From: Candidatus Doudnabacteria bacterium
Lineage (GTDB): Bacteria; Patescibacteriota; Doudnabacteria; UBA920
Length of the DNA stretch: 62,733 nt
Direction of reading: 5' to 3'
NCBI GenBank assembly: GCA_003151625.1
Contig: PLYC01000021.1
Span: 182,930-245,662, forward strand
Both the position numbers and the translations under genes were made by a program. The notes beneath the pieces are model-generated. The model had not been told where the DNA came from. It did no database searches and saw nothing but the letters and a program-made list of their open reading frames with translations. This document shows positions 7,674-27,483 of this stretch, in pieces (the stretch's first letter is position 1; each line of letters begins with the position of its first letter).

Positions 7674-9599
7674 TTAAAGAGTTTTTTGTTTTATTTTTTC
7701 GTCAAAGCTTTCCAAGACGTCGCCGACTAAAATTTTAACCGGGGTTTTGATTTTCATTCCGAACTCCTCGCCCGCGTTTATGGATTTGGCCATAACTTTG
7801 CTTTGCTGGAGCTCGGCTATTTCCGCGCGGCCAAGATCTACCGCTTCCCGCCAAACGGTAATATGACTGTTTTTTTTAACTTCGCCTTCCTCAACCCGGC
7901 CGCCAATAATCATCTGCCCTTTTTCCGTCATAAAAATTGCCAGCACTTTGGCTTTGCCCAAAATAAACTTTTCCAGTTCAGGCGTAAACATTTTTATGAC
8001 CGCCGAGGTAATATCTTCCAAAAGTTCGTAAATTACATCGTAGCTGTCCACAATAACTTTTTTTTGTTTGGCTAAATTTATGGCTTTGGAATTTACTTTA
8101 GTTCGGAAACCAATAATAACCGCTTTGGAGCTTCCGGCCAGCAAGACATCGCTTTCATTGATTTCACCAACACCTTCGTGGAGTATGCTAATTTTAACTT
8201 CGTCGTTCTTAAGTTTGGCAATGGATTGCTTAATGGCTTCCAATGAGCCCGCGACATCGGTTTTTAAAATTAAGTTTAAAGTCTTATTTTCCAAGTCTCC
8301 TACTATGGCCTGTTTGCCGGAAAGTTTATGGCTATGGTTTTTGCGCTGGACTAAAACGGCAATGGTTTTTGCCTGGTCCAATGTTTCGGTGGTCTGTAAA
8401 ATATCCCCGGCTTGGGGAACTTCGCTAAGCCCCGATATTTGGGCGGCGGTGGAAGGAGTGGCTTCTTTAAGCTTTCGTCCGGTTTCATCTTCCAAACTGC
8501 GGATGCGCCCAAAAGCCGCACCCGCGGCAATAATATCGCCGACTTTAAGCGTGCCGTTTTGGACAATAACCGTGGCCGTGGCGCCTTTTCCTTGGCTCAC
8601 GCGGCTTTCTATAATAGTTCCGATGGTTTTGCCGTGAGGGTTGGCGCGCAGGTTCTCCACTTCCGCGGTCAATAAAATCATTTCCAGTAAGTTATCGATT
8701 CCAATGTTTTGTTTGGCGGAAATTTCGCAGGCAATAACTTTTCCTCCCCACTCTTCGGTTAAAACTCCCTGACCGGCTAATTCTTGTTTAACTTTTATAA
8801 TATTGGCCTCGGGTTTGTCCACTTTGTTTATAGCCACAATCATCGGAGTGTTGGTAAATTTGGCGCGGTTGATGACTTCCAAAGTCTGGGGCCTTACTCC
8901 ATCGTCCGCGGCAACTACAAGTACGATGATATCGGTAACATTGGCCCCGCGGGAACGCATTTCCGAAAAAGCTTCATGGCCAGGAGTGTCCAGAAAAGTT
9001 ATCCATTTGTCATTTTTCTTTACCTTATAAGCCCCAATATGCTGGGTAATGCCGCCGCTTTCGCCTTCGGCGACTTTGGTCTTCCGAATAGTATCCAAAA
9101 GGGTGGTTTTACCATGGTCTACGTGACCCATAATGGCAACAATGGGCGGACGGGATTTTAAGTTTTCTTCCTTTTCCGCTTTTAAAACTTCATGCAAAAA
9201 ACCCAGGCCGTATTCAGCTACGGTTTGGTCGGCTTCTGTTTCCACTTCGAATCCTAGTTCCTGCGCCACAATGCTGGCGGTGTCAAAATCCACTTCTTCG
9301 TTAATGGAAGCCATAACGCCGTTGTTTATTAAAACGGTAATAACTTTAGTCACAGGAAGTTTTAGTAAAAGGGCGAAATCGCGGACTTTGATAAACGAAG
9401 GCAACTTAACTTTTTTAACTTCCTGGGTTCCGGCCGCAACGGTTTTTACCGGAGTGCCAAAAGCTTCCAGCAATTTTCTGGCCACGTAATTGTCTACCTT
9501 GTTGGCTTTGGGCGAAATAAAATACCCTTTCTCCTTGGCTTTGAGACGGACGTCCTGGATTGACATATTCAGTTGGGAGGACAGGCTGGATAGATTCAT
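7674..9599 (-). CDS. infB: Translation initiation factor IF-2
   Basis: [47 protein letters not shown]. Confidence 0.97.
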
Positions 9600-9744
9600 A
9601 TTCCGCTGAGTGGTCGTTGATGAGTACGCTGATTGGTCGCTGAGCTGACAATGACATCTTAGCGTCTTATCAGCGTTGGTGTTTAGTTCAGCGTCTCTTC
9701 AGCGGTTAATAACTTATTGATTATACTCGTAAATCTTAATAAAA

Positions 9745-10497
9745 TCAAGGACTTTGTATGGGATCCGAGCTCCAAATAATATCAAAGTTTTTGCGTTCGC
9801 TTTCGGAGATATCGGGACTTTCTACAATAACTGTGATTAATTCTTTTTTTGAGCTGTAATATACAACCTTATTGGCAAAAATCAGTTTGGATGTGTTGTA
9901 TAAAAAATCTTCCGGCAAATATTTTACTTCGCGCAGAAGTTCAGCGTGGTTGGCTTTTAAAAAAGATTCGGGCATTTGAGACTTGAAGTATAAAGCTTTA
10001 AAGTTTATATGCCTTTTTAAGCGCGTGGGAATGTAATAATTTAAATCCCATTCTTCGCTTATAACATTGTGGATTTCACTTATGGAACCGATGTGCCTAA
10101 TTGTGGTATTGGATTGCTGTAATGATCCCTCCGAGGCAATAAAGTAACCTTCCTTGCCTTCGTAATAAGTAATTTTGGGTTTTTGATCCGGTTTTTGCGC
10201 CAAGCTGTTTAATTGAGGCAAAATATTTTTTAAATCCACAAGTTCTTTTTCTGTTTTTGAAACTAAAATATGCGGCGGCGTGGCCACAAATTTAAGCCCG
10301 CTTTTCATTTTAAAACTGCCCATCAGCCCTTTTCTCTCCAAAGCCTGAAAAATAACATAAGCCGAAGTCCTTTTTATTTGTGCTTCTCTTGCTAACTCCG
10401 ACATCCCCGCTTCTCCTAACTTTAAACTCGCTAAATACAAAGCTATCTCGCCATCGTCCAATCCGTTCTCTTTTAGTATTTGCTTGATGTTATCCAT
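9745..10497 (-). CDS. TrmB-family HTH transcriptional regulator
   Basis: GL...E..LYLA.LKLG...ELA...IKRTSAY N-terminal wHTH; PKITYYEGKEG effector-domain start. Confidence 0.8.
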   Translation of the reverse strand: MDNIKQILKENGLDDGEIALYLASLKLGEAGMSELAREAQIKRTSAYVIFQALERKGLMGSFKMKSGLKFVATPPHILVSKTEKELVDLKNILPQLNSLAQKPDQKPKITYYEGKEGYFIASEGSLQQSNTTIRHIGSISEIHNVISEEWDLNYYIPTRLKRHINFKALYFKSQMPESFLKANHAELLREVKYLPEDFLYNTSKLIFANKVVYYSSKKELITVIVESPDISESERKNFDIIWSSDPIQSP

Positions 10498-10509
10498 AAT
10501 TGCATATGT

Positions 10510-10562
10510 CCAATGGTGCCCATTGGTGTGAGAATATTCTTCTGACCAATGGGCACCATTGG
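10510..10562. repeat. Palindromic element family A, inverted-arm variant
   Basis: CCAATGGTGCCCATTGG-19 nt-CCAATGGGCACCATTGG. Confidence 0.7.
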
Positions 10563-10854
10563 CTCTAAATCTATAATTGACGCTTTTTACGTCAACAGTA
10601 TATCAAACCCAATAAAAATAAGCAAATAAAGGTAAAATTCACTATAAATTATGCCATAATTATTGACAGCATGTCAATTTTAATTTATAGTTGCTAGTTA
10701 CAAGCTATGTAACATGTTTTTATGAAAGAGGTGCTTTTTGCAGCGAAGGTTACAGCTCAAGGCCTTAAGTTTGAGTGATGCCGGATCGACCGGCTGGAGT
10801 TATCCGCAAAAAGAATTCCTTATTAGGAATAACCGTTTTAAGGGGGACGCATAT

Positions 10855-11223
10855 ATGCGGACGAGAATGTTAGCAGTTTTGCTGCCGCTGTTTTTACTAG
10901 GATGCGCCAAACAGCCGCTGGCTGAGCAACCGGCTGTGAGCCAAGAAACTGGAAAAGGCGATCAGTTTGTGGTTCAGCACTGGGCTTGGGTCGACATCAA
11001 GAACGATGCAATCAAGAACGGATCTTATGGCTGGGGTGAGTCATGCGTCATACAGACCGGCGGAACAATCACTGTGGTGAGCGTCGAGCATGGCCAACTT
11101 CACTTACAGTACTCCACAGTTGGGACCCACGCTGACAATAGCGTCGCTTGCCCCGACGGTGTAGTTTTCATCGTTCAGAAGGGAAAACTTAAAAGCGAGG
11201 CACTCAAGCGCAAGTCAAGGTAA
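10855..11223 (+). CDS. Hypothetical lipoprotein
   Basis: Start moved to the ATG after AAGGGGG; MRTRMLAVLLPLFLLG-C lipobox. Confidence 0.65.
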   Translation: MRTRMLAVLLPLFLLGCAKQPLAEQPAVSQETGKGDQFVVQHWAWVDIKNDAIKNGSYGWGESCVIQTGGTITVVSVEHGQLHLQYSTVGTHADNSVACPDGVVFIVQKGKLKSEALKRKSR

Positions 11224-11280
11224 AGTCATATGCGCCCGAGATGGCTGGACATCCCGGGCGCATAAATTAAATTATTTTTT

Positions 11281-13287
11281 ATGAACAAACGTTACAAATT
11301 ATATTTAGCTTCCGGCATCCGGCTTTGGAATTTATATTTTAAAGACCAATATTCGGCCAGCTTTAATAAAAAGCTGGATTTGTTCCAGCCTGCTTTAATA
11401 GATAACCAATACGCGCGCGAGCATAGGTTAATTCCCATTAAGATTGCCACTAAAGATTTAGGGGAAATTAATACATGCGACGCGGTTTTGGCTTACATGA
11501 AAAATTATGATACCCAGAATAACGGTCCGGCCGGCACGGACAGCTCTTGGGAATGCGGCTACGCCATTGGCCTCGAAAAGCCGACCATAATGTTGGTGGA
11601 AGACTTGGCGCATTTGGATTATTACACATCCCAATGGATGATTACTTTTAGCATTGGCGCCATACTAACCACGAGCAAAGAGGTGGCGGAAAAGGCAAAA
11701 AATAGCGACAAGTTTACCCATACACGGATTTTGTATTGTGAAAACAAAGACCAATTTGAAAATAAAATTATTGAATATTTGGATAGTTATTATAAGTCCA
11801 TATATGCCAGAGAAGGAATTGTAAATTTTTTTGTTGACAGTGAAATGAGAGCCTACGTGGATAGAAAAAAATTATTGAAGAGTTTAGGAACAGACGAGCC
11901 TGAATTTGGCATTTATGGAAGTTTTACAAAAAATTACGGCCGGTATTTTGATCAAGCTTTTCAAAAATCGAGAAAATTTTTGAACCGGAAAGATTATAGA
12001 ATCATTTGTCGTATGGAAACAGAAAGAGCGACAGCGGTGGCAAATATTATTTCCAATAATTACGATTTATTGCCGGGGTTCTTAGATTATTGCATTCGTC
12101 AAGCTGTTAGCAATTTTGAAGGCGGGGTTAAATTAGTTGATATTGCGGAGATGATTGAATATTGGCTGAGTATCCCGGCCAAAAAAATTAAGGGTCGCAA
12201 GCAAGGCAATAAAAAAACCCGACCAACCATATTTTATGAACTTTATGATTTAGTTAGTCACCACCTTGTGCAATCGCAAAAGTACTTTCCGGAAGATTTT
12301 GTTTATAAAATCGGGGGCATTATTGAAATTTATAACTGGTTAAATACTTACGCGATTGATGACGTTTTTGACAACTCCCAAACGCGCCAAGGCAATAAAA
12401 CTTTACATGCTCAATATAACAGCAGGAAAAACGCTTTATTATTAGGCTCCATTGGCCATTGTCTGGCTTTAAAGTTATTGTATTTAGAAACAAAACAAAA
12501 TATGGATATTGGCAAAGAGCTTGTTAAATCGTTAAACCAAGTCCAACGGCAAATGTACCAGGGACAGCTGGTAGATTTGGCTTTGACTATGGAGAACAAG
12601 GCTCAATTGAAAAGTTTTATCAAACAAAATAGTTTTATTTCCGCTTTGGGTTTATATTTTAAAAGGATTAATGGGATTTGCGGGGCGTTTTATGAAGGAA
12701 TTGGAAAAATGGCCATGCAGTCCACAAATGTCGGCACCCAATTTTACCATAAGGATGAGGTTGAAAGCTCTTGCGTTTACATTGCTAAGCTGTTTGGCTT
12801 AGTGCAAATGATTCGCAATGATTTAGGGGATTATATTTTTCCAGACATGCATTCAAAAATGAGCAAAGGGATGAAGCTGAGTTCGCATAACGATATTATG
12901 GAAGGTAAGCTGACTTTGCCGTTAATTTATATTTTATTTAATCCAAAAGTCTCTAAGTTAGATAAAAGACGACTTTCGTTTTTTATTGGAAGAAAAAATT
13001 TGTCCAAAATCGAAAAAATGGAAATTAGCAGAATCATTTGGGAAAACGGTGCCATTGAATTTTGCATGCAGTTTGTGGAAAATTTTTCCAAGCAGGTAAC
13101 CGAGCAGTATGTAAAATATATCCATGAAACTCCGACCAGGCTGAAATGGATAATTCGGCTTATGGATATTACTCCGTTAATAAATAAAACTTTTCGGCAG
13201 TTAGCGGAAGAAAAAAAATGGAAAAAATTAGAGCCAATGTCTTTGGAGGCCATAAACGCGGCAAAGCTTGCCGATTTTCAATTATAA
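11281..13287 (+). CDS. Fusion of a nucleoside 2-deoxyribosyltransferase/N-glycosidase-like domain and a trans-isoprenyl diphosphate synthase-fold domain
   Basis: N-terminal KLYLAS...DLGEINTCDAVLA...GTDSSWECGYAIGLEKP; C-terminal KKTRP, IDDVFDNSQTRQG, YQGQLVDL, QMIRNDLGDY, DIMEGKLTLPLI. Confidence 0.7.
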   Translation: MNKRYKLYLASGIRLWNLYFKDQYSASFNKKLDLFQPALIDNQYAREHRLIPIKIATKDLGEINTCDAVLAYMKNYDTQNNGPAGTDSSWECGYAIGLEKPTIMLVEDLAHLDYYTSQWMITFSIGAILTTSKEVAEKAKNSDKFTHTRILYCENKDQFENKIIEYLDSYYKSIYAREGIVNFFVDSEMRAYVDRKKLLKSLGTDEPEFGIYGSFTKNYGRYFDQAFQKSRKFLNRKDYRIICRMETERATAVANIISNNYDLLPGFLDYCIRQAVSNFEGGVKLVDIAEMIEYWLSIPAKKIKGRKQGNKKTRPTIFYELYDLVSHHLVQSQKYFPEDFVYKIGGIIEIYNWLNTYAIDDVFDNSQTRQGNKTLHAQYNSRKNALLLGSIGHCLALKLLYLETKQNMDIGKELVKSLNQVQRQMYQGQLVDLALTMENKAQLKSFIKQNSFISALGLYFKRINGICGAFYEGIGKMAMQSTNVGTQFYHKDEVESSCVYIAKLFGLVQMIRNDLGDYIFPDMHSKMSKGMKLSSHNDIMEGKLTLPLIYILFNPKVSKLDKRRLSFFIGRKNLSKIEKMEISRIIWENGAIEFCMQFVENFSKQVTEQYVKYIHETPTRLKWIIRLMDITPLINKTFRQLAEEKKWKKLEPMSLEAINAAKLADFQL

Positions 13288-13331
13288 AACCGACAACTTT
13301 TTACGATTGCCGGTTTTGTTTTGGGATAAAA

Positions 13332-13655
13332 TTATTTATTGCGGGCTAAGGTGGCAAATTGTAGAAAATATTTATTTAAACCTTCCGGGTTTTGGGGTTC
13401 ATTGGACAACTCCAAACAGGCGTTTTCCCGCAGACGGCAAAGTTCTTTTAAGCGGTGATTCTGCCAGCGCGGATCGGCGATGGTAGAATCCAAAAGTTCC
13501 AGCATGCGGTCATAGGCTTTTTGGAAATAGACAGGTTGGGCTTTTTGTTTCCAGTTTAAAGCCCGTCCGTATTCACTGCCCACATTTCCGAGCTGCTCGG
13601 CAAGGGAAAGTTTTTGCCACGAGCCATTATTCAGATTTTGATGCAAAGAGGTCAT
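13332..13655 (-). CDS. Hypothetical helical protein coupled to DUF5674
   Basis: Long ORF with a 4-nt overlap to the upstream gene; W..LSL.EQLGNVGSE..RA pattern. Confidence 0.65.
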   Translation of the reverse strand: MTSLHQNLNNGSWQKLSLAEQLGNVGSEYGRALNWKQKAQPVYFQKAYDRMLELLDSTIADPRWQNHRLKELCRLRENACLELSNEPQNPEGLNKYFLQFATLARNK

Positions 13656-13999
13656 AAAATAAGTTTGGAGACAATTTCTAAAATTTGTTTTTGAATTTCC
13701 GCGCTCTCCACCGAACGGGAGCGGTTATTTTGTCTTGGCCGGATGTTTATCATGGAATCAAATTCCAGCATGTCCGGCAGTTGCATATCGGGATAGAGGT
13801 TAATGCCCCAAAGATTTTCCTGTTTTGAGTCTTGTGCGAGCAAAAAAGCTTCTTCATCTGCATGTAAATCCCCGCCAGCAGCCAATATCTGTTTTTCCAA
13901 GTCCACAACAGCCTTAACCATATCGCCAAAGCGTTTTGAGGCAATATCTTTTAACTCTTTTTTGCTGATTGGTTTTGCTATTAAAATAATTTCTTCCAT
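13652..13999 (-). CDS. DUF5674-like protein
   Basis: MVKAVVD....AAGGDLHAD.E..LL...LWGINLYP...EFDSMINIRP.QNNRSR. Confidence 0.7.
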   Translation of the reverse strand: MEEIILIAKPISKKELKDIASKRFGDMVKAVVDLEKQILAAGGDLHADEEAFLLAQDSKQENLWGINLYPDMQLPDMLEFDSMINIRPRQNNRSRSVESAEIQKQILEIVSKLIL

Positions 14000-14014
14000 A
14001 CAGGTATTATACCA

Positions 14015-14857
14015 TTAAAATGTCCTGTTTTTGCCCACAATCATTCTTAATCTTTTTGGAATTATTTCTACGGTGCTGGGAAATTTTGCTACCACGCGGC
14101 CGAGCATGGTGAGGTTGGTACCGCGGGGCTCCAGGAATTCGATTTTTTTGCATTTTATAACTGTAGTATTGGGAACTTTTTCCAGCGTGCCTTCGGAAAT
14201 GGCATCGCGATATTTTAAAATTTGCAGTTTGCTTAGGCGTTCTAAAATAAGCAAATCCAGGTTGCCGTCCGTGGGGTCGGCGATTTTCTCGCCTTGGCCG
14301 GAAGTGGAACGAATGTTGGCCACCAGGCCGCCCAGGCCGTTAATGGTCACGTTGTAAGAATCGTCTACTCGAATAGTAAAACTTTTTGCTTCGGAAGACA
14401 GCAGTTTTAAGTTTTGCCAGAGTGAGGCGTTTTTAATGTTGTGGGACATAACGCCAAATTCCAAAAAGCTGATAAAATAATTGCCGGAAATTTTGGCAAG
14501 ATCAATTTTTTCTATTCTCCTGGCGGCTATGGTTTTTACCCCCAGGAAAATATTTTCAATACCCAAAATTTTTGCTAAGTTGGAATTTTCGTTAAAAGGG
14601 ATGAAGCCCAAAGTGAAATCCCTTCCTTTAAGCGCCGCCAGCATTAAGTTAAAGGTGTCGTCCGTACCGCAGGCGACCAAAGTTTTGGCGCCGCGCTGGC
14701 TGGCTGTGTCCACCAAATCTTGGATACTGCGCAAAGGCGTGACGCGTGCGGTTTCCCCGGAAATTTTAAACTCTGCCAAAAGCCCCTGCAGTTCTGTCTG
14801 CAGTTTTTCGAATTTTTCCATTGGCAAATTATGCTGGTCTACAATGTAGTAATACAA
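14015..14857 (-). CDS. Diacylglycerol-kinase-like protein (degenerate GGDG motif)
   Basis: LVACGTDDT in place of GGDGT, LGFIP...NLAKILGI, IDLAKI, DG.LDL. Confidence 0.65.
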   Translation of the reverse strand: MYYYIVDQHNLPMEKFEKLQTELQGLLAEFKISGETARVTPLRSIQDLVDTASQRGAKTLVACGTDDTFNLMLAALKGRDFTLGFIPFNENSNLAKILGIENIFLGVKTIAARRIEKIDLAKISGNYFISFLEFGVMSHNIKNASLWQNLKLLSSEAKSFTIRVDDSYNVTINGLGGLVANIRSTSGQGEKIADPTDGNLDLLILERLSKLQILKYRDAISEGTLEKVPNTTVIKCKKIEFLEPRGTNLTMLGRVVAKFPSTVEIIPKRLRMIVGKNRTF

Positions 14858-26706: not shown

Positions 26707-27483
26707 ATGGTCCAACAAAATTTTGAATTTCAAAAGGCGCTCTTATCGTTAAATTTTACGGAAAAGGAAGCCAATGTATATTTGGCATTGCTGGAGCTAG
26801 GCCAGGGAACAGTATCCAAAATTGCCCTAAAGGCCGGAATTAATAGGACATATGGCTACAATATTTTATCGATATTGGCCAACAAAGGTTTGGTTAATGT
26901 CTCTGGCAAGGAGCCAAAACAGGAATATGCAGCGGAATCCCCGGACAAAATTCGGGATTTATTAAAAGCGGAGATTGCCAGGAATGAGGGATTTTTAAAA
27001 CAGGCCAATGGGGTAATTCCACTGTTAAAATCCATCCACAGCATTCGCGGCCGGCCGCAGGTACGTTTTTATGAAGGCAAAGAAGGCATCCAGCAGGTTT
27101 ATGAAGAAACTTTGACTTCTCACGAAACCATTTTGGCTTTTGCCAGCGTGGAAGACGTGCACCAAACCTTGCCTGATTATTTTCCGGATTATTATTTTCG
27201 CAGAGCCGGCAAAGGCATACCTATTAAGGCGATTTTTCCCGATTCTCCCGAGGCTGAAGATTTAGTAAAATTCAATAATATCCAAAAGAGAGAGACGGCA
27301 TTGGTTCCTCCGGGAGAATATTCATTCTCACCGGAGATTAATATTTACGACAACAAAGTTATGATTGCCTCCTGGAGGGAAAAGCTGGGCATAGTTATAG
27401 AAAGTGGGGAGATTGCGGATGCCATGAAGAAAATTTTTAAGTTGGCTTGGGCTGAGGCAAAGCGTTTGGAAAAACAAAGTTAG
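26707..27483 (+). CDS. TrmB-family HTH transcriptional regulator
   Basis: FTEKEANVYLALLELG.GTVS.IA..AGINRT..Y; PQVRFYEGKEG; PEINIYDNKVMI. Confidence 0.82.
   Translation: MVQQNFEFQKALLSLNFTEKEANVYLALLELGQGTVSKIALKAGINRTYGYNILSILANKGLVNVSGKEPKQEYAAESPDKIRDLLKAEIARNEGFLKQANGVIPLLKSIHSIRGRPQVRFYEGKEGIQQVYEETLTSHETILAFASVEDVHQTLPDYFPDYYFRRAGKGIPIKAIFPDSPEAEDLVKFNNIQKRETALVPPGEYSFSPEINIYDNKVMIASWREKLGIVIESGEIADAMKKIFKLAWAEAKRLEKQS

Follow-up and report, generated by a model that had tools for sequence, protein, structure and literature searches.

Several described enzymes offer parallels to the chemistries considered here. ComX is prenylated on a tryptophan by ComQ, a homologue of isoprenyl diphosphate synthases (IPPS) in which the first Asp-rich motif (FARM) is intact; where these synthases have the second Asp-rich motif (SARM), ComQ has a pseudo-SARM, for which only NDxxx or GDxxx will serve, DDxx(D) being described as unsuited to the prenylation of Trp (PMC5331326). 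Ord1, an all-α-helical indole prenyltransferase, performs no condensation with isopentenyl diphosphate (IPP) (PMC12510300). In Claviceps purpurea, the IPT-LOG protein carries on one polypeptide a prenyltransferase and an N-glycosidase that frees the base (PMC5521058), and bacterial terpenyl transfer to a nucleoside is represented by the tuberculosinyl-adenosine synthase Rv3378c of Mycobacterium tuberculosis (PMC11476799). Here we describe a gene in a 62,733-nucleotide stretch of the genome of a Candidatus Doudnabacteria bacterium (assembly GCA_003151625.1, contig PLYC01000021.1, positions 182,930 to 245,662; this whole stretch is hereafter the window), whose product fuses a domain like nucleoside 2-deoxyribosyltransferase (NDT) to an IPPS-like domain by way of a helical linker. 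We tentatively read the fusion as a bifunctional enzyme that would couple N-glycosidic cleavage to non-elongating prenyl transfer and so yield a prenylated nucleobase or nucleoside. Both domains come from known superfamilies, and with ComQ as a mechanistic precedent, the protein has the potential for a new enzyme activity.

The fused protein and its family

The N-terminal domain (N-domain) has the NDT/DNPH1/MilB fold, with the catalytic Glu and the supporting Tyr and Asp kept. PF05014 (Nuc_deoxyrib_tr) matches residues 25-112 at 30.8 bits, a borderline pass of its cut-off of 28.8 bits. When the N-domain was modelled separately (mean predicted local distance difference test score, pLDDT, 89.4), all of the top 33 Foldseek matches in the PDB were NDT, DNPH1, MilB or BcmB structures, with template modelling (TM) scores of about 0.45-0.58. 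Residue invariance was judged from an alignment of 25 homologues of 34-70% identity (A1) and, for this domain, also from an alignment and profile of fused and stand-alone N-domains (A2). Y8, D67, D87, W90, E91, G93 and Y94 are invariant across the 25 sequences. In profile comparison with the PDB, E91, which lies in the motif GTDSSWECGYA and is the predicted nucleophile, is aligned with the catalytic Glu of T. brucei NDT (2a0k), the E. faecalis protein 7m5h, L. mexicana NDT (6qai) and MilB. NDT enzymes act via a covalent glycosyl-Glu intermediate that can be transferred to an acceptor.

The C-terminal domain (C-domain) is matched by PF00348 (polyprenyl_synt) over residues 307-570; the score of 58.3 bits exceeds the cut-off of 27, and Foldseek placed the C-half with trans-IPPS structures (GGPPS, DPPS and FPPS; target-normalised TM about 0.63-0.78). 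NCBIfam models matched the fusion only far below threshold, the matches being to solanesyl, GGPP and heptaprenyl synthases. Motifs were mapped onto the structures 3rmg, 1wy0 and 4jxy and onto canonical IPPS genes of a sister genus and of two fusion-bearing archaea. The FARM is intact: D360, D361, D364 and R369 are invariant in A1 and are aligned to DDxxD..RRG of 3rmg, 1wy0 and the canonical IPPS of archaea and of candidate phyla radiation (CPR) bacteria; AIDDVFDNSQTRQG is present here, with Ile where His usually precedes DD. Also kept are KKTRP (equivalent to GGKRxRP, motif I), GQxxD and a C-terminal GK..D..GKxT block (SKGMK...NDIMEGKLTLP). Compared with canonical IPPS, every member of the family carries RQ(G) for RRG, GIC for GKT, QM for FQ and NDLGD for DDxxD. 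The replacements IC, QM and RQ are invariant or nearly so across the family; in the second motif, N513, D514, L515 and G516 are invariant in A1, and the last Asp is largely kept. Of the features of a chain-elongating IPPS, the protein thus has the profile match, the fold and the FARM and lacks the SARM, the KT and FQ motifs and the second Arg of RRG; DDVFD together with NDLGD fits the ComQ pattern of a kept FARM and a second motif of the form (N/G)Dxxx.

In FPPS, the diphosphates and the carbocation are contacted by both residues of KT (Lys and Thr), by the Asp that opens the second motif and by the second Arg of RRG; mutating these residues lowers kcat by orders of magnitude. That these elongation residues have been replaced in concert, and that the replacements are conserved, points to a different reaction rather than to decay. 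The helix ahead of the FARM has the form E-x-Y-N-W-x-N-T-Y, with Y351, N352, W353, N355, T356 and Y357 invariant, and appears from these residues to be more polar and aromatic than is usual for this part of the fold, which in canonical enzymes forms a wall of the hydrocarbon pocket. The linker has invariant residues of its own in A1 (S173, R177, G179, N182, V185, D186, E246 and P299). A full-length AlphaFold2 (AF2) model, built on the alignment of 25 homologues, reached a pLDDT of 86.9 and a predicted TM score of 0.85, a confidence which suggests that the domains may be held in a fixed arrangement. A first-pass annotation, made from the sequence alone, had assigned an NDT/Rcl/MilB pattern with its catalytic Glu to the first half and altered IPPS landmarks to the second, namely the missing His and NDLGD, and had advised a fold check on each half; the profiles, the invariant residues and the models bear these assignments out. 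Its further remark that there is no clear KT motif is right for the central Lys-Thr, where Ile466-Cys467 stands; the C-terminal GK..D..GKxT block is kept.

A word-indexed search returned 60 relatives, more than 50 of them full-length, at 33-70% identity, with some on contigs up to 1 Mb; their source names include Buchananbacteria, Vogelbacteria, Paceibacterota, Parcubacteria and Kuenenbacteria. So many full-length homologues in diverse lineages mean that the fusion is no assembly join, and an artefact of assembly or frameshift was rejected on these grounds, long contigs being among the evidence; an assembly error had been one of the ways in which, by the first-pass annotation, its proposal could fail. 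It had also stated that it knew the fusion from no characterised pathway, and this agrees with what we found: the family is conserved, and in the searchable literature no paper was found that names both domains, nor anything relevant on isoprenoid metabolism in Patescibacteria.

The fusion is a rare, accessory and laterally moving gene. When 1.8 billion representatives were scanned exhaustively with HMMER, only three full-length clusters (at 50% identity) came up, together with stand-alone N-domain proteins of 163-193 aa and one 510-aa C-unit. Patescibacteria genomes were sampled evenly, and of the 301 examined, PF00348 is missing from 178, present as a canonical gene (mostly of about 350 aa) in 121 and present as a fusion of about 675 aa in 2. 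A scan of one genome per GTDB species gave 18 fusion loci. In what follows, G numbers denote compared genomes, G000 being the source genome of the window, and L numbers denote compared loci. Two of the loci labelled as archaeal were checked and do have archaeal genes on their contigs, GatD in L013 and Cdc48/VAT, ribosomal L7Ae and DUF7343 in L025. The fusion copies on these contigs are 41-48% identical to bacterial copies, which indicates transfer between CPR bacteria and DPANN-type archaea; the family is common to both groups. On one Buchananbacteria contig (CAIOLF010000046.1), two copies (L023 and L024) lie at about 31.0 kb and 77.4 kb on opposite strands; they have identical scores and share a flanking gene in inverted orientation, an arrangement due either to the inverted duplication of a large segment or to an error of assembly.

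Prenyl partners, precursor supply and possible function

In informative contexts, the N-domain clade always occurs with a prenyl enzyme, whether fused to it, beside a split IPPS-like gene or beside one to three UbiA prenyltransferase genes. In the split form, at L001, the N-domain has a gene of its own (166 aa), which shares 26 nt with the gene for a 510-aa IPPS-like protein; the latter has NDLKD at the second motif, and the pair is flanked by a divergent TrmB gene. The split C protein (P0069) begins with the linker motif YYxRS..N..VD, so that in this form the linker belongs to the C-unit. This distant split form (L001:1092-3099) has RT at the KT site, and its two open reading frames (ORFs) overlap exactly at the linker motif. 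To judge from its motifs, it appears to be intermediate between canonical IPPS and the fused family.

UbiA genes adjoin stand-alone N-domain genes in all four loci that are non-redundant and long enough (L002, L034, L038 and L044). The two genes are convergent and abutting in L002, and UbiA precedes the N-domain gene in L044. In L034, found in four samples, the N-domain gene is followed by a UbiA gene with a 4-nt overlap and then by a second UbiA gene, and in L038 the order is O-methyltransferase, UbiA, N-domain, UbiA, UbiA. The clusters at L038:3443-6854 and L034:4992-7237 have the look of a small pathway, whose product would be an aromatic compound that is both prenylated and methylated; a Lnt-like gene lies upstream of the N-domain/UbiA cluster in the latter. 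Since UbiA has no representative in the source genome or in 11 other fusion genomes, it looks as if the N-domain is partnered either by the fused IPPS-like domain or by UbiA.

As for the prenyl donor, the source genome, of 1.5 Mb and scored 100% complete, has the fusion as its only PF00348 gene, and so do 13 of the 17 other fusion genomes. The remaining four (G305, G312, G313 and G315) carry a canonical IPPS of about 350 aa together with the fusion, and three of them have GHMP-kinase genes; the fusion is therefore no mere replacement of the canonical enzyme. The sole GHMP kinase of the source genome sits between a sugar-phosphate nucleotidyltransferase and an SDR gene, a nucleotide-sugar cluster that marks it as a sugar kinase. 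Because most fusion hosts lack the tested markers of precursor pathways, the prenyl donor is probably supplied from outside the cell, and in the source genome it is probably host-derived. These observations are part of a wider puzzle, in which a prenyl diphosphate synthase is missing from most of the Patescibacteria sampled, and the source genome, with none of the tested markers of the methylerythritol phosphate (MEP) or mevalonate (MVA) pathway, keeps both UppS and the fusion. Its UppS gene (contig C2:2183-2836, L009) is divergent: it scores 118 bits, those of other genomes about 160-290 bits. The same-genus genome G200 has no UppS gene, and that of the source genome, like the fusion, may have been acquired as an accessory gene.

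The reaction sequence that we infer for the fusion, with its substrates and product, would run as follows. The N-domain would cleave or swap the N-glycosidic bond of a nucleoside or nucleotide, and the C-domain would bind a prenyl diphosphate, supplied from outside the cell, at its FARM/Mg2+ site, ionise or otherwise activate it, and hand its prenyl group on to a nucleophile that is not IPP, in the manner of ComQ, PalQ and Ord1. The two steps could be coupled in either order: the released nucleobase might then be prenylated, or the nucleotide might be prenylated first and the prenylated base released afterwards, the latter being the cytokinin logic of IPT-LOG carried out with unrelated folds. 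Release and prenylation of a nucleobase had been one of the two functions put forward in the first-pass annotation; it stands as the best single reading, backed by the ComQ-like ND pseudo-SARM and by the UbiA genes that adjoin N-domains, with activity and product at the level of a proposal. A more specific version is somewhat more doubtful, namely that the IPPS-fold half prenylates a nucleobase or nucleotide and is permanently coupled to an N-glycosidase of NDT type, so that a single accessory protein yields a free prenylated base, that CPR bacteria and DPANN archaea without the tested precursor markers pass the gene laterally between them, that the enzyme draws on host-derived prenyl diphosphates and its product could work at the interface of symbiont and host, and that the UbiA-linked N-domains are a membrane-bound version of the same system. 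Prenylated bases and nucleosides serve elsewhere as hormones (cytokinins) or as host-manipulating lipids (1-TbAd). If the proposal is true, nucleotide and isoprenoid metabolism would be linked by a class of enzyme that has not been described before and that occurs only in ultra-small episymbionts, both bacterial and archaeal. The class would offer an IPPS-fold route to prenylated nucleobases or nucleosides, and the IPPS fold would be a further fold for prenylating a base or nucleotide, after the P-loop fold of IPT and the cis-prenyltransferase fold of Rv3378c. Being a single soluble polypeptide with a confident model, the fusion is directly testable.

Several observations weigh against coupled base release and prenylation. 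A marker-based search of the source genome found neither IspH nor HMG-CoA reductase, and thus no source of prenyl diphosphates was seen. A candidate isoprenoid GHMP kinase is absent from 14 of the 18 fusion genomes, the source genome included, which speaks against the MVA pathway and, as IspE is required there, against the MEP pathway as well. ComQ, PalQ and Ord1 were not among the top 50 Foldseek or the 25 hidden Markov model matches of the C-domain in the PDB. The best NCBIfam matches of the UbiA neighbours were to generic "prenyltransferase" models, below their cut-offs, which assigns these neighbours to no subfamily. The retention of motif I as KKTRP, which binds the diphosphate of IPP in canonical enzymes, makes an IPP-like second substrate possible. 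Finally, UppS is present in 8 of 14 genomes that have the fusion as their only PF00348 gene and in 2 of 14 relatives without IPPS (Fisher p = 0.046, not corrected for phylogeny).

The association with UppS would follow if the C-domain were an atypical, active short-chain synthase making an FPP or GGPP primer for UppS, with the N-domain regulatory or serving an unrelated nucleotide salvage. We regard this as unlikely, despite the fact that the fusion is so often the only PF00348 gene, the source genome included, that in close relatives UppS and canonical IPPS are either both present or both absent, and that the FARM, the Lys/Arg of motif I, GQxxD and the last GK..D..GKxT block are kept. Every member has other residues in place of the four that are near-essential for elongation (Lys and Thr of KT, the first Asp of the SARM and the second Arg of RRG); a canonical IPPS stands alongside the fusion in four genomes, and UppS is missing from six fusion-only genomes. 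The lack of MEP and MVA markers in the source genome and of GHMP kinases in most other fusion genomes bears equally on a primer synthase, which moreover leaves the invariant catalytic residues of the N-domain and the stand-alone N-domains beside UbiA unexplained. These same UbiA genes would fit a lipid-linked sugar as product. DPPR synthase, a UbiA subfamily, joins phosphoribose to polyprenyl phosphate, and the glycosyl-Glu intermediate of NDT enzymes can pass to an acceptor, so that a (deoxy)ribosyl-enzyme formed by the N-domain might hand its sugar to a polyprenyl phosphate held by the IPPS-like domain or by UbiA, giving a product like decaprenyl-phospho-ribose. The frequency of UppS in fusion genomes is in keeping with this idea, which we consider improbable nonetheless: the UbiA neighbours match DPPR synthase marginally (one at 1.7e-4) and generic archaeal prenyltransferase models better, no glycosyltransferase or flippase recurs near the fusion, six fusion genomes lack UppS, and we know of no NDT-family enzyme that uses a phosphate acceptor.

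The first-pass annotation had offered as its other function a conflict effector that depletes nucleotides, in which the N-glycosidase would act on the nucleotides and the IPPS-like domain would be a sensor or regulator. The gene is indeed accessory, borne on an island and laterally moving, with toxin-antitoxin genes near some copies, but the effector found no support and is very improbable. PADLOC gave no family for the fusion or its two downstream neighbours (the lipoprotein gene upstream had one weak, unrelated match), no relatives of the fusion were found on viral contigs, and no defence partner recurs; the catalytic metal motif of IPPS is strictly kept, which a sensor would not need, and the pairing with prenyl enzymes points to metabolism. 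The futalosine route to menaquinone combines a nucleosidase, a polyprenyl diphosphate synthase for the side chain, a UbiA-type prenyltransferase (MqnP) and a methyltransferase, and L038, with an O-methyltransferase and three UbiA genes around its N-domain gene, recalls this set; weak matches to MqnP were also seen among the UbiA neighbours. A role in this pathway is nevertheless hardly credible and was rejected, because MqnA/MqnD (PF02621) occur in 0 of the 18 fusion genomes; UbiA is absent from the source genome and 11 others, and the elongation residues are lost. A route from a C5 nucleotide sugar to IPP was dropped as well, since two such domains cannot supply the rearrangement of the carbon skeleton and the reduction.

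The accessory block

The fusion gene lies in a 4.4-kb accessory block (Table 1). Homology of the source genome with its same-genus relative G200 and with G321 ends at 9598 and returns at 14015; in both relatives infB (whose product IF2 is 85% identical in G200) adjoins a DAGK-like gene, and in the source genome the block intervenes. It contains the genes for a TrmB-family regulator, a small predicted lipoprotein, the fusion, a 107-aa ORF and DUF5674. The fusion gene has a GC content of 36.8%, the median over genes being 42.0% (standard deviation 4.2). No convincing flanking repeats of the insert were found, the sole find being an AT-rich 38-nt direct repeat (11266-11303 and 13326-13363) around the fusion gene itself, which it brackets almost exactly; the pair is imperfect, at 71% identity, and could be due to chance.

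Table 1. Positions in the window of the fusion gene, its domains and motifs, and the features around it
Feature	Position	Strand	Basis or remark
Fusion gene (668 aa), NDT-like and IPPS-like domains joined by a helical linker	11281..13287	+	ORF; Pfam; homologues; AF2 model
N-domain, residues 1-170, nucleoside 2-deoxyribosyltransferase/DNPH1/MilB fold	11281..11790	+	PF05014, PDB profile, model, Foldseek
Codon of Glu91, predicted nucleophile in GTDSSWECGYA	11551..11553	+	Invariant in alignments A1 and A2
Helical linker/extension, residues 171-300	11791..12180	+	Alignment A1; AF2 helices
IPPS-fold domain, residues 301-668	12181..13284	+	PF00348, Foldseek, profile against PDB
FARM, DDVFD, D360-D364, intact; then R369-Q370 in place of RR	12358..12372	+	Alignment
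Ile466-Cys467 replacing the catalytic Lys-Thr (KT)	12676..12681	+	I466 and C467 invariant; aligned to KT of 3rmg, 1wy0 and canonical IPPS
NDLGD, N513-D517, replacing DDxxD; preceded by QM, not FQ	12817..12831	+	Aligned in three templates and three canonical IPPS
Accessory block of 4.4 kb with the fusion gene	9600..14014	.	Synteny with same-genus G200 and with G321
TrmB-family regulator, divergent from the lipoprotein and fusion genes	9745..10497	-	PF01978
Small predicted lipoprotein, signal peptide and LLGC lipobox	10855..11223	+	Alternative TTG start at 10738
Back-to-back sigma-70-like promoters in the TrmB/lipoprotein spacer	10648..10691	.	11/12 matches each; consensus match only
15-bp GC-rich inverted repeat (putative hairpin), then T-run, between lipoprotein stop and fusion start	11229..11264	+	Inverted repeat scan
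Terminator-like hairpin, 3' end of fusion gene	13259..13273	+	Consensus scan, pattern match only

Regulators alone recur beside the fusion. In an all-against-all clustering of the neighbours at 27 loci, TrmB was found at 4 (of about 24) and an AsnC/HTH-type regulator at 3, and no recurrent enzyme partner was seen beside the fused gene. The first-pass annotation had placed the gene downstream of a lipoprotein in a TrmB-divergent locus, and this position is right, with no conserved operon behind it: the lipoprotein gene has no Pfam match and is not kept beside the fusion at other loci. TrmB also stands next to the fusion or the split form in L001, L005 and L019, and TrmB genes are abundant in the source genome. 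As a co-inherited, dedicated regulator TrmB was set aside as weakly supported, the TrmB proteins of the window and L001 being reciprocal best matches and those of L005 and L019 being nearer to a paralogue at 26707.

The spacer between the TrmB and lipoprotein genes holds, at 10510-10562, a perfect inverted repeat with 18-nt arms, CCAATGGTGCCCATTGGT and ACCAATGGGCACCATTGG, each of which is itself palindromic; the arms are a candidate TrmB operator. Downstream of the fusion, at 13332-13999 on the minus strand, the 107-aa ORF, which has no family match, and the DUF5674 gene (124 bits) form an overlapping pair with no PADLOC match. The toxin-antitoxin genes seen near some fusion copies elsewhere are of the HEPN/MNT and PIN/MazE types.

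Comparison with known systems

With NDT, DNPH1, MilB and BcmB, the N-domain shares the fold, the catalytic Glu at the start of the ..WE.GYA helix, the Tyr of strand 1 and the Asp after strand 3. It differs from that superfamily in its borderline sequence similarity (E = 3e-4 against the PDB, besides the PF05014 score given above), in invariant residues that are the clade's own (W16, F20, Y24, P37, H48 and W119-M120) and in its constant tie to a prenyl enzyme. The C-domain resembles chain-elongating trans-IPPS such as P. horikoshii GGPPS (1wy0) and octaprenyl diphosphate synthase (3rmg) in fold, with a target-normalised TM of about 0.7-0.78, and in the FARM, the Lys/Arg of motif I, GQxxD and the C-terminal GK..D..GKxT block; it departs from them in the RQ, IC, QM and NDLGD of the whole family and in a source genome without the tested IPP-pathway markers.

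The IPT-LOG protein, despite its parallel logic, is a functional analogy only, its folds being unrelated: IPT is a P-loop enzyme and LOG carries PGGxGTxxE, whereas the motif of the fusion is GTDSSWE and no IPT or LOG family was among its Pfam matches. Rv3378c, which has a cis-prenyltransferase fold, is without a glycosidase domain, works with a class II diterpene cyclase and has no homology to the fusion. From the ComQ group, the fusion is set apart by an NDLGD that largely keeps its last Asp and by the attached NDT-like domain and helical extension of about 130 residues; no ComX-like peptide gene was seen adjoining it, and its C-domain is not detectably closer to ComQ, PalQ and Ord1 than to ordinary IPPS. 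With ComQ, PalQ, StheQ and Ord1, however, it shares the IPPS fold, a kept FARM and a second motif whose first Asp is replaced, the ND of the fusion being the same as that of ComQ's pseudo-SARM.

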